64,000 nucleotides of DNA from Pseudomonadota bacterium (GTDB lineage Bacteria; Campylobacterota; Campylobacteria; Campylobacterales; Sulfurimonadaceae). Positions 24,001-36,000 of the stretch are shown here, one piece after another. Position 1 is the first letter of the stretch, and every line of letters begins with the position of its first letter. The DNA is taken from the NCBI GenBank assembly GCA_043797085.1, contig JAZDQA010000008.1:96001-160000 (forward strand), written 5' to 3'. Made by a program: the position numbers.

Positions 24001-27000
24001 ATTATGAGTGATTTTTTGGGCGAATAAGAGTGTTTTATTTTGAGTTGAAAAAAGATCGCTATGGGCATATTGTTCAATGTATCCATCATTTTGTAAAGCA
24101 TTATTTATAATGGGATCGGAACTAGCGGTAATTGAATTCGTTTCATTAATATTGAGTCGAATGTTCCCTTGCGTGTCGGTGATGATTATTTCATTGTAGA
24201 CACTGTATTTCATCGTGTATTCAATCAAACGTTCTTGCAGTGCTTCTGAAGTGTTATTTTCATTTAAAAATTCAATTATGGCTGTATCGGTTGCTAAAAA
24301 GCCGACATCAGCTGTTCGTTCAAAGAGATTTCGGATTAGGATATCGATACTGATCTGGGCTTTAGCGCGGAGCTCTTCGGTATATTTTTTTAAATTTTCA
24401 CGAATCAGGAGCGGGATAAGCTCTGTTTTTAAATCACTAAAGGTCTCGATCGTTTTTTCGGTAAAAGAGAAAAGATTTGCCGCTTTTTCGAGAGCACAAA
24501 TTTTTCCTGTGAGAATAATTTTTTTTAGGAATCGGTTTTGATCATCGAGAAGTTTTACACTGTTTTCAATAAATGGAAAAATTGTTAAAAATTTTGAATA
24601 GTCCATGTTTCTCCATTTTATATATTTTACTAATAATTGTATTGTAAATAGTAATATAGCAGATAATTGGAATTTTTTTATACATGAAATAATTTTATTA
24701 ATGATTATTATTTAATCATCTACTGTTTTAGTTCTTATGGAAGAATCGAACAATAATTGCATTATTTGTACATATATATGGGAGGAATAGCATGAGTGAA
24801 CTCGACATCTTACGTCATGAAGTTGAAAGCTATTTGAAAAAATACGCTATTAATGAGGAAGCACGGTATATTATTGCTCCCTTGATTGCTAGAAAATCAC
24901 TGGAAATGAATCACCTCTATCAAGATTTAGGCTTTAAAAGCCGCTCTCAGATGGGTGCGTATATGGCAGAGCATTTCCCTCACTTAGCCGAACTTAAACC
25001 CAAAGATAAACTCTGGAAAAAATTTCTCTATGATGCTATTGGCAAAGTAGCACCTGCGTGTGCGACGTGTAATGACCAAGAGCATTGCTTTACGTGTCTC
25101 ATAGCCGAGGCGAGCGCGTGAAGACACCATCAATCACGACCACAGAACTCTATCGTCATCTCGATACTCTGATCGCGGCTGATATTCCTGTATTTATTCA
25201 TGGCTCTCCGGGGATTGGAAAATCGTACATTGTTGCTGATATAGCAGTAAAGCATGGATTACAGCTTGTCGATGTCCGTCTCTCACAGATGGATCCGGTC
25301 GATTTACGTGGTGTTCCTGCAATTCGTGATGAGCAGACGGTATGGATGGCTCCCGTTTTTTTCCCGAAAGACCAAAATTCAAGCGGGATACTCTTCCTCG
25401 ATGAACTAAACTCTGCACCTCCCTCAGTGCAAGCGGCGATTTATCAGTTGGTATTGGATCGTAAGATGGGTGAGTATTCACTGCCAAAAGGGTGGCGTAT
25501 CATTTGTGCAGGGAACCGCATATCCGATCGGGGTGTCGTGTTTCGTCTCCCGACACCGTTAGCCAATCGGATGGTACATCTCAGTGTAGAAGCACGATTT
25601 GAGGATTTTAAACTCTTTGCAATTCGTGAGGGATTGCACTCGTTTGTGATTGGATTTTTAGGATTCCGTCCCGATTTACTTACCTCAGAACCCATCAGTG
25701 ATGATGACAGCAATCCTGCATTTGCAACACCGCGAAGCTACCATATGCTTTCACATATCCTCAAACATAATGAGAATACTGCGAACATTGCTCCTATTAT
25801 TTACGGTCTTATCGGTTACGGTGCAGGGATTGAGTTTTTATCGTATGTGAAGGTGTACGAAAAACTCCCCGATGTCGGGGCAATTTATCGAGGTGAATAC
25901 CCGAGTGTTGATAAAAGTGAACCGGCACTGCTGTATGCTCTCGTTTCGGCGATGGTGGAACTGTATCGTGGAAGTGCAGAGCAAACGACACATTTATTTG
26001 GTTTTGCTCAAAAATTGCCCACCGAATTTGGGGTAATGCTGATCAAAGATACCATTGTTAAAGATGAAAATATTGCAATGTGTTCTGAATTCGACGAGTG
26101 GATCGAGCGCTATGGCGACTACATCCTTTAATGATCAACTCGAAAAAATACGGGTTCAGTTTCTCTTTGATCACCCTTTTTTAAGCGTCCTAGCTCTCTC
26201 GATTCCCCACAAATACCAGAGCAATCTTCACCTCCTTTTTGAGACGGATGGGGTGAGTATTCGTGTTGATGAGAACAAAACGATGGGCTATGATGATGCC
26301 CGTCTCAAATATCTCTACGCTCATGTACTGCTCCATATCCTCCTCAAACACCCTTTTCGGATGAAGGGTCGGGAGAAGCCGACATGGAATCGCAGTTGTG
26401 ACATCGTGATCGGATTACTCCTTAACGATTTTCAGCGGGTGGGTAGTGCGGATGAAGAGGCAATAGTGATTGAGTCGTTTCACGACAAAAGTGTCGAAGA
26501 GGTATACCACGCCCTCTATCGTGAGAGTAATGAAGGAGAAGGAAAGCAAAGCGAAGAGAATCCGACACAGCAAAAAATGGACATCGTCGAGCATGAAGGA
26601 GATACCAAGGTTGCAGAAGAAGAGATCGATGCCCTGATCATCCAAGCGATGGGTGCAGCGCGCAAGCAGGGGAATATCCCAGCATCGTTGCTGGAGATGT
26701 TCGATGAGATCACCAAGCCTTCTATTGATTTGCATACGCTCTTACACACCTACATGACAGAGAGTTTTTTCGATAAAGAGTCTGATTTCTCTCATCCGAA
26801 TCGCCGTTTTATCCATCAGGGACTTTATCTTCCCGGATACCGCTATGATCGCAACCGTTTGAGTTTTTTTATCTTTTTGGATCGCTCTATGAGTATTACG
26901 GGGGAAGTTTTTTCACGCTTTTTAGGGATTATCGACTCGATTGTTCGCATGAGCCATGATTTCGAGGTGAGTGTGATCCCATTCGATGAGAGGGTCTATA

Positions 27001-33000: not shown

Positions 33001-36000
33001 CACATTCTCTCTACGGCACTTACTATGCGGGTTAATGATTACACGGGGAATAAGAAGCTCAACAACCTTATCACCTATACGTTGAAACTTCCCGGTGAGT
33101 TTGCTGTAATGATTATCCAAGACCTCAGAGCACGTAAAATCGAACTCGACCATGTTGAGAGCTGGCCGTTGTGGATGCGCCAGTTTAATACACTGCTACG
33201 ATAATGTCGCACGAAGAACTTCTTTTACGGGCAAAAAGCCTTTTGAATGTGAAATATCCCTATTTCGGGATGCTGGCTTCACGGTTGCAACATGAACCAA
33301 GCGACACCGTATCAGGATATGCGAGTAATGGAAAACGGTTTATCTACAATGTCCAATTTTTGGAGCGTAGAAACGTCGAGGATGTGATGTTTATCCTCAC
33401 GAATGCCGTGATGCACCATGTCCTCTCCCATCAGCAGAGAAAACTCAATCGCAAAGGTAAGTTATGGCAGTTAGCGACCGACTACGCCATCAACAATCTC
33501 CTTTCCAAAAGCGGTCTGCATATCCCTATTGGGGCAAATTACAACAAAGAATACGAAGGTATGTACGCCGAAGAGATTTACGATGCACTTAAAAATGATG
33601 TAAATATTGGCGAGGGTGATGCCTTCGGTGAAAGTGGTGACAGTGCCCCCGAAGCTTCCACGATGGAGCAAGAGGATGATGACTCGTCAGGTTTTGCCAA
33701 TATTGACGGTATCGCGGATGAGCTTGACACCCAAGATGAATTGCAATGGCAATACGCCGCCTCGATCGCTCAGGAAGTAGCACAGCGTAAGGGATCTATG
33801 CCGTTGGGATTGGAGCGATTGGGGAAAAAGGTGAAGCCCAGCGATGTTGATTGGCGATTTGAACTTTATAATGCCGTCAACCGCCACATGCGCAACAACT
33901 ACGCCTTTATGCCTCCGAACAAAAAACATATCCATCGCGGAATAGCACTTCCATCCCTCACCAGTGATACTCTCAGTCTTTGTGTAGCCGTTGATACTTC
34001 CGGATCAATCGACGATCAGCTTTTGGGGGCATTTATGGAGGAGTTTAAAACCATCATGCAAAACTTTCCTTCCGTCAAAATCGAACTCATCATCGCCGAT
34101 GCCAAGGTGCATGCTCATCATACCTTCCAAGGGGGAGAACGGATGGATTTCGCGCTCAAAGGAGGAGGCGGAACCGATTATCGCCCGACGTTTGATTATG
34201 TCGAAGCGAATTTGCCGATGACGACAATGTTGTTGTATTTCACCGACGGGGAAGGGTCGTTTCCGCGTATTCCTCCAAATTATGAAGTGCTGTGGGCACT
34301 CTCACGAAAAGCAAAAGTTCCATTTGGACGGGGGATGGTAATTTTTAGTTAAAGATGATCGCTGTAATCGCAAGACCCATCGATCTCATGCATCTCTTTT
34401 ACTGATTTTTTCAAATCTGCTGCATATTGGGCCAAGAGCATGGCATCAACTTCACAATCCGCTGCGATAGCTATGATTTCGCTACTAGTGATGTCAGGGG
34501 AGCGTAGGCGTGCGAACTGATCGGCTGTGATGTTGATGTGAAATATTTTGTCGATGGAGTGAAGGGTGAGAATCATCCCTCCATGCTCCGTAATGCGGTG
34601 TTAATCTGCTCTAATGCCAGAGACTTGGCATTTTCTACCTCTTTGTTATCCCACCAGTATTCGATGATAGCGTGTTCAATCTGTTCGATTTGCTCCATAC
34701 GTAAGTTGACAAAAACTTCATTCGTGTTGATTTCATCGGGGCTGAGTCCTTTGGAAGCGGCAATTTTATTCAGCGTTTCGACGATGCTTTTTTCGAGCGG
34801 TTTTGGGGTGCTTTCTTCACGGGCGTGATCGATCCATGCGCGAATTTCGTCCTCTAGGTAATCATGTCCCCACACCTGATAACACAAAATACGATTTGGC
34901 GTATAGATGATAGTGTGATCTTCACTCAATACGTCAGAGGATTTGACATTTCCGTCGTAGATATAGACTTCCAGACGTTCATTGTCGCGCAGGGTGCAGG
35001 CTTGTTCAAAAGCCGCTCGGGCGTGTTTTAGCACTTCGCTTTTTAGATTTTCATTCATAGTGACTCCTTAAGATACTTTTGCATTATGATAGTCCCATAG
35101 CCGTTTGTAATGGCTGTCGAGCTCAGATAGGGTTGAATCGACGGTGATGAGTTCATTGGTACGATCAAATCGTTTATTGTTGGTCTCATACCAGTTTTCC
35201 ATCTCTATTTTGAGAACATTGCGCTTCGCAGCAGTTTGGGCGATGAGTTGACGTATCTCTTCCATCTCTGAGGTGATGATATATTCCATGTTGGACTCTT
35301 CGTGTATGTAATTAACAGCACTTATGCATTTTTTATTCTTTAGGTGTGAACAACAATTGCAATGGTTCTCTTAATAAGAGTAAAAATAGGGAGTGACCAT
35401 GGAAGAAGAGACATTGATGCAACAAGCGATTAAAGCCTACGATGCGAAAGATTTTATGAGTGCAAAAGCGATTTGGGAATCTCTTGGTGACTCTAACACG
35501 AATGCCATGGTCAATCTGGGAACAATGTATGTCAAAGGATTCGGGATGCCTAAAAACATCCATAAGGCATACGAGCTGTTTGAACGTGCGGCATCCTTGG
35601 GACATGAAACGGCTGCATTTTATCTGGGCGGCATGTATGAAAACGGCATCGGTGTCACTGCAAATTTGGAAGAATCGATTCGTCATTATACGGTAGCGGC
35701 AGAGGCCAATATGGCAACGGCACAGCTGAAACTTGGAATTTTACTCCGTAATGATGATGTTTTGAACTCGATGAAATGGATGATTAAAGCGGCACATGCA
35801 GGAGAAGCGCAAGCCCATTCACTGTTGACCTACGTGAGCAACCAAAATGAAGATAACGACATAAATGTCACATTTCGGATGATGGATCTCTCCTCTCAGC
35901 GTGCCAAAGTTGAAACCGTTATTAGTGAAAATCTCGGACCCATCCTTGCAAGCGACGGCGGCGGAGTCGAGTTGGTCAACTACGTAAGCGGTGATACTCC

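Follow-up and report, generated by a model that had tools for sequence, protein, structure and literature searches.

A nif-associated MoxR/VWA gene cassette next to nifQ in Campylobacterota

The window analysed here, a 64-kb stretch of one contig, contains six start/stop-overlapping genes, of which nifQ is the first. It is followed by genes for a MoxR-class AAA+ ATPase (A1), a DUF2201_N and VWA/MIDAS protein (D1), two proteins designated unk240 and unk80, and an ArsC-like protein (Table 1). The successive overlaps from nifQ to the ArsC-like gene are 4, 20, 32, 8 and 1 nt, the first being that of the A1 GTG start with the nifQ stop. A second ATPase/VWA pair (A2-D2), with a 1-nt overlap between the A2 stop and the D2 start, lies downstream, and a third pair (A3-D3) is on another contig. 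The survey's finding from which this work started had named genes at all three places, and each of them was recovered by Pfam profiles and protein comparison. Profiles were searched with open frames at 25085-26131 for A1 and 26055-27263 for D1. The likely starts, as revised, are GTG 25118 for A1, ATG 26112 for D1, ATG 27232 for unk240 and ATG 28180 for the ArsC-like gene, and the A1 start fits the ortholog lengths of 334-344 aa.

Table 1. Features of the nifQ locus and of the related gene pairs (window positions, except for the third pair)
Feature	Position	Strand	Description and basis
Sigma-54-like motif GAAC-N5-TTGCAT	24748..24762	+	~30 nt upstream of nifQ start codon
nifQ	24792..25121	+	short NifQ, 109 aa, C-terminal four-cysteine cluster; Pfam
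A1	25118..26131	+	MoxR-class AAA+ ATPase, 337 aa; Pfam AAA_5, AAA_3
D1	26112..27263	+	DUF2201_N + VWA/MIDAS protein, 383 aa; Pfam, MIDAS, model
unk240	27232..27945	+	237 aa, all-helical; alignment, predicted model, synteny
unk80	27938..28180	+	80-aa ORF without family; synteny
ArsC-like gene	28180..28611	+	'nitrogenase-associated protein', 143 aa; TIGR01616
Promoter-like motif upstream of A2	32082..32097	+	same -12 element, variant -24 element; putative
A2	32209..33204	+	second MoxR-class AAA+ ATPase, 331 aa; Pfam AAA_5
D2	33204..34352	+	second DUF2201 VWA protein, 382 aa; Pfam
Third pair A3-D3	G000:C1:180216-182323		contig C1

A1 and A2 both matched Pfam AAA_5 (33 and 35.6 bits, respectively; cut-off 22). 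AAA_3 was matched by A1 at 30 bits against a cut-off of 27, which A2 did not reach (24 bits). The Walker A motif (GSPGIGKS in A1, GPPGIGKS in A2 and A3) and the Walker B motif ILFLDE, common to all three ATPases, are intact, and PDB matches of A1 included the midasin AAA domains (5e-12) and NorQ (9qh4, E = 2.8e-4). A gene for a VWA/MIDAS partner adjoins both ATPase genes of the window, D1 beside A1 and D2 beside A2. DUF2201_N (PF13203, cut-off 23.2) was matched by D1 at 84.6 bits and by D2 at 105 bits, with DUF2201 scores of 43.1 and 79.8 bits, respectively. All 27 sequences compared, D2 and D3 among them, share the MIDAS residues DxSxS, T and D (D256, S258, S260, T320 and D344) without exception. 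The AlphaFold model of D1 (pLDDT 79.1) gave 105 Foldseek matches at E <= 0.001; the matches listed are VWA or integrin I-domains, together with NorD, and the likeness to the VWA fold and NorD sits in the C-terminal half of the model. With intact Walker motifs, an invariant MIDAS and a predicted VWA fold, A1 and D1 look functional. The zincin motif HExxH was absent from D1, D2, D3 and 24 D1-type orthologues. D1-type proteins carry an HxxxHxxxxH motif, of which D2 and D3 retain the last two histidines only.

The nifQ-linked pair had been described as the diverged one, and the comparison agreed with this: A1 is 40.5% identical to A2 and 40.1% to A3, compared with 56.2% between A2 and A3, and D1 is 21.3% identical to D2 and 20.9% to D3, compared with 40.1% between D2 and D3. 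At E <= 1e-5, A1, D1, A2 and D2 matched no NCBIfam family, in a library that may or may not include MoxR/VWA models. The same library did name nifB, nifH, nifX, nifV-like and nifS in this genome; A1, D1 and unk240 matched none of its families, consistent with the earlier claim that the pair is outside the known nif genes. A literature search found no paper on the nifQ-linked cassette.

The survey had treated A1-D1 as the unit, which proved too narrow: the conserved unit is a three-gene cassette, A1-D1-unk240. A1 and D1 are still paired in 53 of 63 GTDB loci, and the other 10 have an insertion of 0.5-4.3 kb between the two genes; unk240 directly follows D1 in 75 of 80 GTDB loci and is present in 34/34 D1-type loci. 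No Pfam or NCBIfam match was obtained for unk240. Its alignment of 33 sequences has 31 invariant columns, the protein contains no cysteine and no recognisable metal site, its model is all-helical (pLDDT 93.8), no relative was found in the PDB by fold or by sequence, and only 52 clusters were found among 1.84 billion representatives. The unk240 proteins form a new, lineage-restricted family. The most constant genes after it are those for an unk240 paralogue and the ArsC-like protein; in 58 of 68 GTDB loci with room, the ArsC-like gene is no more than 1.5 kb from unk240. The unk80 gene, whose product had no Pfam match, adjoins unk240 in 71 of 78 GTDB loci with room.

NifQ of the window matched Pfam NifQ at 70.9 bits (cut-off 27), covering positions 60-158 of the 159 of the model only, and had no NCBIfam match at 1e-5. 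This short NifQ is the usual form in the order (open frames of ~104-150 aa), and the translation contains four C-terminal cysteines in the pattern CxxCx5CxxC. NifQ bears an Fe-S-Mo centre. The ArsC-like protein matched TIGR01616 at 129.9 bits (cut-off 109), and it may be equivalent to Azotobacter NifO.

The pair had been placed inside a nif island. Nif genes do surround it, but they form a loose region of ~90 kb with signalling genes in between; nifHDK lie outside the window, and nifD is on the contig that carries D1, 48 kb further downstream. The neighbours reported earlier (the TIGR01616 ArsC-like protein, a NifU-Sel1 fusion and a NifX-like protein, as well as an aldo-keto reductase and an SdhA-like flavoprotein after nifU) were all found again with Pfam and NCBIfam, together with a Mop/TOBE protein and ferredoxins. 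Handlers of molybdenum or FeMo-co nearby are thus NifQ, the ArsC-like protein, the Mop/TOBE protein and the NifX-like protein. The cassette block is divergent from a NifA-like activator.

The motif GAAC-N5-TTGCA, which precedes nifQ, occurs 22 times in the 2.40-Mb genome against 11.2 expected. Eight of these copies are in the nif region (84-169 kb of contig C8), where they precede nifX, nifU, a redoxin operon, nifQ, nifU-Sel1, nifS, nifB and nifH. Twelve related loci have a similar motif 45-47 nt ahead of nifQ. The nifQ motif lacks GG at -24, and no TGT-N10-ACA site was found ahead of nifQ. The motif upstream of A2 recurs as a near-identical 16-mer at 36545-36560, upstream of a ferredoxin-nifX operon. 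In the reading favoured below, the cassette would be subject to NifA/sigma-54 regulation and co-expressed with nifQ and the ArsC-like gene within the nitrogen-fixation regulon.

The distribution of the cassette was examined in an order sample of 401 genomes, 91 with and 310 without nifD. D1-type genes were present in 34 genomes, all 34 of which carry nifD, and in none of the 310 genomes lacking it. The profile held within families of patchy nif occurrence, the cassette being present in 3/3, 4/4 and 7/15 nif genomes of families f19, f8 and f10 (32, 11 and 39 genomes in total, respectively), and its co-occurrence with nifD was strict over at least nine families. Fisher values overstate the D1-nifD association, given the lack of independence among related genomes. 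Physical hitchhiking fails to explain the profile, since 188 kb to 1.23 Mb separate the cassette from nifD in seven single-contig genomes. In one genome (G109), the genes for NifA, FprA, A1, D1 and unk240 are all fragmented, and nifD likewise. The cassette is therefore associated with nif, and the phylogenetic profile, the operon, the nif-type promoter motif and the joint decay in G109 sustain the earlier proposal that the nifQ-linked pair belongs to nitrogen fixation. The proposal that it is lineage-bound also stood, as the best 80 loci of a GTDB-wide scan were all from Campylobacterota.

Where the upstream sequence was long enough, in 58 GTDB loci, NifQ adjoins A1 upstream in 54; in the order sample, 11 of 35 loci have NifQ immediately before A1. 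Both samples point in the direction of the survey's neighbour counts. The reported adjacency to nifQ thus holds in part of the clade but not in 21 of 34 genomes, where the cassette is elsewhere and its neighbours are varied non-nif genes. The cassette is absent from 57 of the 91 nifD genomes (both pairs from 55), among them 4/6 genomes of the window's own genus. Nitrogen fixation therefore cannot require the cassette, which is dispensable. A genome of this genus (G195) retains nifQ-unk80-ArsC with exactly the cassette missing, indicating that NifQ does not depend on the cassette.

The second pair is no generic copy: D2-type orthologues occurred in 25 of the 401 genomes, every one with nifD. 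In a quick tree the D2-type clade had 100% SH-aLRT support and arose from within the A3-D3 group. A2-D2 would be a separate nif-restricted machine. The third pair has the same two Pfam architectures as A2-D2 (A2-A3 56% and D2-D3 40% identity). Unlike the cassette, it is of a widespread type that occurs in at least 60 genomes without nifD, is flanked by genes for an ExoX-like exonuclease and a PIF1/RecD-like helicase, and has no unk240 gene nearby. Given its position beside an exonuclease and a helicase, a tie to metalloenzymes does not extend to the entire family.

MoxR/VWA pairs are described as drivers of metal insertion in PMC13036017 and PMC9976466, and the former attributes the NorQ-NorD mechanism to a VWA finger located in the pore of the hexamer and to the remodelling of a linker. 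As in NorQ-NorD, the operon of a metalloenzyme system includes a gene for an AAA_5-type ATPase and, next after it, one for a VWA/MIDAS protein, and the D1 model matched NorD of the NorQD complex (9qhg_G, E = 2e-4). However, NorQ-NorD serves nitric oxide reductase, in which it installs the non-haem FeB, and the cassette is nif-linked, not nor-linked; D1 has an amino-terminal DUF2201_N domain in place of the NorD architecture, and the cassette includes a third conserved protein, unk240. CoxD is needed for the ATP-dependent reductive sulfuration of a Mo site, according to PMC4240915. CoxD-CoxE(-CoxF) of CO dehydrogenase comprise an AAA+ ATPase, a VWA protein and a third partner that mature a molybdenum-containing site, and by analogy this chemistry is what loading Mo into the Fe-S-Mo centre of NifQ would need. 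The likeness stands at the level of the AAA+ and VWA classes. The substrate of the Cox proteins is a folded molybdopterin enzyme, and unk240 was unrelated to CoxF in the searches run. In CbbQ-CbbO, the Rubisco activase, a MoxR-class ATPase and a VWA adaptor remodel one dedicated enzyme and are encoded beside it. This system removes inhibitors rather than inserting metal, and CbbO is much larger than D1 and has no DUF2201_N domain. The three-part logic of A1-D1-unk240 resembles that of the chelatases CobS-CobT and BchI-BchD, whose AAA+/VWA motor passes energy to CobN, a separate subunit that binds the substrate (bioRxiv 10.64898/2026.10.09.757910). However, unk240 (237 aa, all-helical) had no similarity to CobN or BchH in the searches run, and no tetrapyrrole genes are near the cassette.

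On these grounds, we lean slightly towards the cassette encoding a MoxR/VWA remodelling chaperone that is dedicated to nif in an accessory role and whose most plausible task is the handling of Mo or clusters. If it works as NorQ-NorD does, A1 would assemble into an ATP-driven hexamer and D1 would plug into it, reaching its client via the VWA/MIDAS face; unk240 would be a lineage-specific third subunit of the complex, either a client adaptor or the client itself. The cassette would aid a metal step of nitrogenase biogenesis, bettering the process without being essential to it. Its likeliest step would be the preparation or handover of Mo, by loading NifQ or passing Mo towards NifEN/NifH. Insertion of molybdenum or FeMo-co is a reasonable analogy, and the Mo-specific part of this proposal, taken alone, is tentative.

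An unlikely alternative, resembling CbbQ-CbbO, is a nitrogenase repair or reactivation machine that frees oxygen-damaged or inhibited components in micro-aerophiles. Its dispensability fits a stress-linked helper, MoxR proteins are presented as stress-response chaperones in PMC9964418, and in most loci the cassette follows genes for a peroxiredoxin-like redoxin, an ankyrin protein, a nitroreductase and the flavodiiron protein FprA in one gene string. However, in 21 of the 34 genomes the cassette is apart from these oxygen-defence genes, and oxygen defence is not among the most constant genes after unk240. It is less probable still that the cassette works for another metalloenzyme, or in molybdate handling generally, rather than on the nitrogenase system, and is merely co-inherited with nif in the phylum. 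In Arcobacteraceae-like and Sulfurospirillum-like genomes it sits far from nifD with unrelated genes around it, and AAA_5/DUF2201 pairs without nif are common, as in the third type; both would suit such a role. The strict co-occurrence with nifD, the promoter motif common to nifQ, nifH, nifB and nifU, and the decay along with nif genes in G109 argue against it, and no alternative client gene is conserved beside the cassette.

A mobile or conflict-type nature of the cassette, which would then insert into nif regions and travel with them without any role in nitrogen fixation, is in our view very improbable. In the G195 comparison the cassette behaves as one discrete block, inserted or deleted between nifQ and unk80, insertions separate A1 from D1 in some loci as noted above, and the helicase beside the third pair, which is PIF1/RecD-like, matches PADLOC helicase models; these observations would suit such a module. 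On the other hand, A1, D1, unk240, unk80, A2 and D2 had no PADLOC match at E <= 0.001 (2023 library), no integrase or transposase was seen beside the cassette, it is bound to nifQ and unk80 through overlapping starts and stops, and no genome had it without nifD, including those in which it is unlinked to nif. Because the cassette was found only in nitrogen-fixing relatives, the chaperone proposed here may be an unrecognised assistant in building or repairing nitrogenase.

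The genes named in the survey's finding, which placed an AAA_5/DUF2201 pair behind nifQ and a second such pair farther on, were all recovered by Pfam and NCBIfam scans of the window (C8:96001–160000 of a 2.40-Mb genome in 14 contigs), and a third pair is located on contig C1. Recomputed pairwise identities among the three pairs reproduced the survey's figures, in which the nifQ-linked pair was the diverged one. Below, A1 and D1 denote the ATPase and the DUF2201 protein next to nifQ, A2–D2 and A3–D3 the second and third pairs, and unk240 and unk80 the two ORFs that follow D1; A1, D1 and unk240 together are called the cassette. 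The closest public relatives of the genome are Sulfuricurvum MAGs, whose unk240 proteins are 73–89% identical to the window copy. nifHDK are absent from the 64-kb window. Because nifH, nifD, nifB and the true nifX all lie outside it, the nif region is a loose stretch of about 90 kb.

Features of the nif region and of the repeat discussed in the text (bare positions count along the window; those with a contig name count along the contig)
Feature	Position	Remarks	Source
True nifX	C8:84774
Aldo-keto-reductase-like gene and SdhA/NadB-like flavoprotein	9978–12747	directly after nifU, mutually overlapping
631-aa ORF	22711–24606	minus strand, between FprA and nifQ
NifQ, short form	24792–25121	109 aa	Pfam/NCBIfam scans
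A1, AAA_5/AAA_3 ATPase	25118–26131	GTG start, 337 aa	Pfam scan
D1, DUF2201_N+DUF2201 protein	26112–27263	383 aa	Pfam scan
unk240	27232–27945	237 aa
unk80	27938–28180	80 aa
ArsC-like, TIGR01616 'nitrogenase-associated protein'	28180–28611	143 aa	NCBIfam scan
Tll0287-GGDEF-EAL protein		listed between ArsC-like gene and A2–D2	Pfam/NCBIfam scans
A2, second pair	32209–33204		Pfam/NCBIfam scans
D2, second pair	33204–34352		Pfam/NCBIfam scans
NifU-Sel1, Mop/TOBE protein, ferredoxins, NifX-like protein		after A2–D2	Pfam/NCBIfam scans
Nucleotidyltransferase pair and AbiH-like gene	38434–39922	right after nifX-ferredoxin block
c-di-GMP genes	14012–16078, 28690–31389, 41493–43208, 49743–50990, 53444–56860, 58131–60038
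nifB	C8:163587
nifH	C8:169027
nifD	C8:170457
Palindrome of about 33 nt, copies in window	32111–32145 and 36637–36671	opposite orientation
Palindrome, other copies	C10:96651 and C13:15137

Gene starts were set from ortholog lengths and from the codons at every junction, and the genes so delimited are likely ones. From nifQ to the ArsC-like gene, which may be the counterpart of Azotobacter NifO, consecutive genes overlap by 4, 20, 32, 8 and 1 nt; judged from the sequence, this packing is that of a translationally coupled operon. Neither the 99-aa nor the 62-aa ORF of distant loci showed similarity to unk80. The latter, a conserved ORF of about 62 aa, ends 0–10 nt 5′ of A1 in 9 of the 30 loci examined, where nifQ is not adjacent (L051, L052, L057, L059, L060, L061, L062, L064 and L070), and was without BLASTP similarity to unk80.

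Several other features of the island were recorded. The survey had described a flavoprotein and an aldo-keto-reductase-like protein beside nifU, and this pair was seen there with no adjoining iron-sulfur partner; the flavoprotein scored 289 bits against FAD_binding_2 and fell under every NCBIfam equivalog cut-off shown. The 631-aa ORF upstream of nifQ, which has no Pfam or NCBIfam match, is present in only some Sulfuricurvum loci, and in most relatives FprA leads straight into nifQ. The inserted nucleotidyltransferase pair (NTase_sub_bind and Polbeta) is toxin-antitoxin-like. Genes of c-di-GMP signaling are unusually dense among the nif genes and encode two CBS-GGDEF proteins, Tll0287-GGDEF-EAL, FIST-GGDEF and other GGDEF and GGDEF-EAL proteins, of which some also carry a receiver or PAS domain. 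No Rfam family was found in window positions 20000–40000.

A1 has intact Walker A and Walker B motifs, and the solved structures closest to it are AAA modules, those of midasin (5e-12) and NorQ (2.8e-4). In an alignment of 27 D1 sequences, the MIDAS residues (DxSxS, T, D) are invariant, and the amino-terminal domain also has invariant positions, namely two His, one Arg, one Trp and a Glu-Glu pair; HExxH was not found in this alignment, and D1-type proteins have HxxxHxxxxH instead. A sequence search of the PDB with D1 gave no match. The AlphaFold model of D1 (pLDDT 79.1) has a carboxy-terminal VWA fold, with matches to integrin I-domains (1e-5) and to the NorD subunit of NorQD (2e-4). None of A1, D1, A2 and D2 is named by any NCBIfam model.

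The third component, unk240, is a new protein family with a confident predicted structure (pLDDT 93.8; 15 helices). It has no Pfam or NCBIfam match, yielded nothing below E 0.09 in a PDB sequence-profile search, nothing at E ≤ 0.001 with Foldseek and nothing at 0.9 or above in the ESM Atlas, and its best hit in a wide VIA search (Z 8.1) was limited to the last 66 residues. The family is strongly conserved, with 31 invariant columns in 33 sequences and no cysteine. When its profile was compared with 1.84 billion representative proteins, only 52 clusters were retrieved at E ≤ 0.001, about 14 of them full length; a group of 188–202 aa aligned only to profile positions 91–233. In distant loci, unk240 is followed by a 187-aa ORF that is paralogous to its carboxy-terminal two thirds (hhalign 99.2%). 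The minus-strand ORF at 34573–35058 was considered as another paralogue and dropped (hhalign probability 0.5%). A complex prediction for D1 and unk240, whose controls did not fold, scored 0.00 and speaks neither for nor against an interaction.

The distribution of the cassette was analyzed in an order sample of 401 genomes, with D1-type proteins defined by at least 33% identity (paralogues reached at most 29% identity and 117 bits over full length) and nifD called at E ≤ 1e-100. nifD was present in 91 genomes, NifQ in 92 and a D1-type gene in 34, all 34 of which carried both nifD and NifQ; no D1-type gene was detected in the 310 genomes without nifD. The Fisher probability of this association, 4e-25, is overstated because relatives are not independent. 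The association persists within families of patchy nif: the cassette is present in all three of the nif-bearing genomes of family f19 (3/32), in all four of those of f8 (4/11) and in 7 of the 15 of f10 (15/39). Its absence from 57 of the 91 nifD genomes, including 4 of 6 in the window's own genus, counts against necessity. Distribution beyond the phylum was drawn from one motif-based GTDB scan and one profile search without taxonomy; the GTDB-wide scan with the unk240 alignment returned 124 relatives, and the best 80 of the 124 were all from Campylobacterota.

Comparison of the 34 loci around D1-type hits showed unk240 directly after D1 in 31; it follows A2–D2 in G162 and G352 and lies 4.6 kb off in G394. 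NifQ is immediately 5′ of A1 in 10 loci and in the window, where D1 is at least 56% identical, and loci of this type have in common an upstream redoxin-(ankyrin)-nitroreductase-(AlaDH)-FprA series and a divergent NifA-like activator. The cassette of the 21 more distant genomes (D1 33–44% identical) sits among varied non-nif genes, and NifQ is elsewhere, near nifD. Among the best 80 of the 124 GTDB loci, D1 was directly 5′ of unk240 in 75 of 80, NifQ adjoined A1 in 54 of the 58 with room, unk80 adjoined unk240 in 71 of 78 and the ArsC-like gene was at most 1.5 kb away in 58 of 68. In the same set, 10 of 63 loci had an insertion of 0.5–4.3 kb at the A1/D1 junction, which seems to be an insertion hot spot; L040, L041, L044, L074, L078, L085, L130, L140 and others have such insertions, some with GGDEF-EAL-like matches.

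Two genomes serve as natural experiments. G195, a nifD-bearing member of the window's genus, retains NifQ-unk80-ArsC and lacks precisely A1-D1-unk240, indicating that the three genes form a discrete cassette. In the 1.6-Mb genome G109 (L071, C1:1411556–1429825), NifA, FprA, A1, D1 and unk240 are all fragmented and nifD is also a fragment, so that this lineage looks like one caught in the loss of nitrogen fixation.

Of the 401 genomes, 25 had D2-type proteins (at least 54% identity; next group at most 47%); nifD is present in every one of these, and the cassette in 23. In a quick maximum-likelihood tree of 67 rows, in which G228_D2t and G212_D3t were kept despite aberrant branches and are probably mis-picked ORFs, the D2 type formed a clade with a long stem (100% SH-aLRT), nested in the widespread D3 type and with a group from genomes lacking nifD as its sister; the D1 type was one deeply separated group. 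The conserved unit of second-pair loci is A2–D2 only, and in Arcobacteraceae-like genomes its neighbours are an HI0933-like flavoprotein and an RND efflux system. By family tallies, at least 60 genomes that lack nifD have the D3 type. In this genome, A3–D3 is flanked, within C1:177190–183566, by an ExoX-like exonuclease, a 428-aa ORF without Pfam match and a PIF1/RecD-like helicase with matches to PADLOC helicase models; PADLOC gave no match for the first two pairs. Instead of acting as a metalloenzyme chaperone, the third pair type may belong to a DNA-linked or conflict system.

The motif GAAC-N5-TTGCA[A/T] has 22 genomic copies versus 11.2 expected from composition. Eight of these lie in C8:84–169 kb (C8:84572–168978), which is 3.5% of the genome and should hold about 0.8 if copies were evenly spread, and each of the eight precedes a nif operon (nifX, nifU, the redoxin operon, nifQ, nifU-Sel1, nifS, nifB and nifH). 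A looser form was found 45–47 nt 5′ of nifQ in 12 related loci. The motif resembles a degenerate −24/−12 pattern without the canonical GG, and we infer sigma-54 dependence; a NifA-like sigma-54 activator is encoded nearby. The strict sigma-54 pattern in the window, as well as sigma-70 promoter and terminator scans, gave chance levels only, and the NifA-type site TGT-N10-ACA was found before nifB only. The palindrome of about 33 nt, 5′ of A2 and of the ferredoxin-nifX operon, was considered as a molybdenum operator and rejected because its other two copies lie between housekeeping genes (the argJ/prs gap and that between a class I Trp/Tyr-type tRNA synthetase gene and a SIS-domain gene); the element is probably a generic repeat of intergenic DNA rather than an operator for nif or Mo. 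One metatranscriptome run gave a single 261-nt contig inside A1; the runs contained small shares only and three are probably DNA, and the contig does not serve as evidence of transcription.

These results establish that a MoxR-type ATPase, a VWA partner with a competent MIDAS and a fixed third protein are coupled to nifQ in an operon and confined to nif genomes. Two reports describe client remodelling by MoxR/VWA pairs as what permits metal insertion; in NorQD, a VWA finger reaches into the pore of the hexamer, and a NorD linker is remodelled by the ATPase (PMC13036017, PMC9976466). According to another report, MgATP-dependent reductive sulfuration of a Mo site requires CoxD (PMC4240915). Because of these precedents and of the Mo/FeMo-co-handling neighbours (NifQ, the ArsC-like oxyanion-reductase fold, the Mop/TOBE protein and the NifX-like protein), we lean, with modest confidence, toward the cassette being an accessory chaperone for a metal step of nitrogenase biogenesis, partly in line with the survey's proposal of a Mo/FeMo-co insertion chaperone. 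The oxygen-defence genes upstream would suit a machine for repair or reactivation, which we consider unlikely. Service to another co-inherited enzyme appears less likely still. A hitchhiking module is the least probable reading. In seven single-contig genomes, distances of 188 kb to 1.23 Mb separate the cassette from nifD, so physical hitchhiking does not explain the co-occurrence.

For the favoured metal-step chaperone, Mo loading of or from NifQ is, by analogy, the most specific guess and a tentative one. A broader proposal, which we regard as speculative, is that two separate nif-specific AAA+/VWA machines exist in diazotrophic Campylobacterota, one with an unk240 family found nowhere else. 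The nifQ-linked machine, together with the ArsC-like reductase, would carry out energy-dependent reduction and sulfuration of molybdate and then load it onto NifQ, much as CoxD acts on the Mo site of CO dehydrogenase. If this were true, nitrogenase biogenesis would have in these two machines its first known ATP-driven remodelling chaperones, and a missing step in molybdenum entry into FeMo-co would be supplied.

To our knowledge, the known nif genes include no AAA+ remodelling factor, and the literature searched, which did not cover subscription journals, contained no report of a nif-linked MoxR/VWA system; the papers retrieved there for AAA+ and VWA proteins in a nitrogenase context were on CO dehydrogenase and methanol dehydrogenase. 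The nif-restricted cassette is a concrete, testable candidate for the question of how molybdate reaches FeMo-co through NifQ; it brings with it the new unk240 family, and there is a second nif-restricted pair as well. Should the client prove to be a repair substrate or another enzyme, it would still be a new client class for MoxR/VWA machines. The cassette could bear on nitrogenase transplant efforts, where cofactor loading limits activity. Being accessory, it may mark how micro-aerophilic sulfur oxidisers have adapted to low molybdenum or to habitats under sulfide and oxygen stress.
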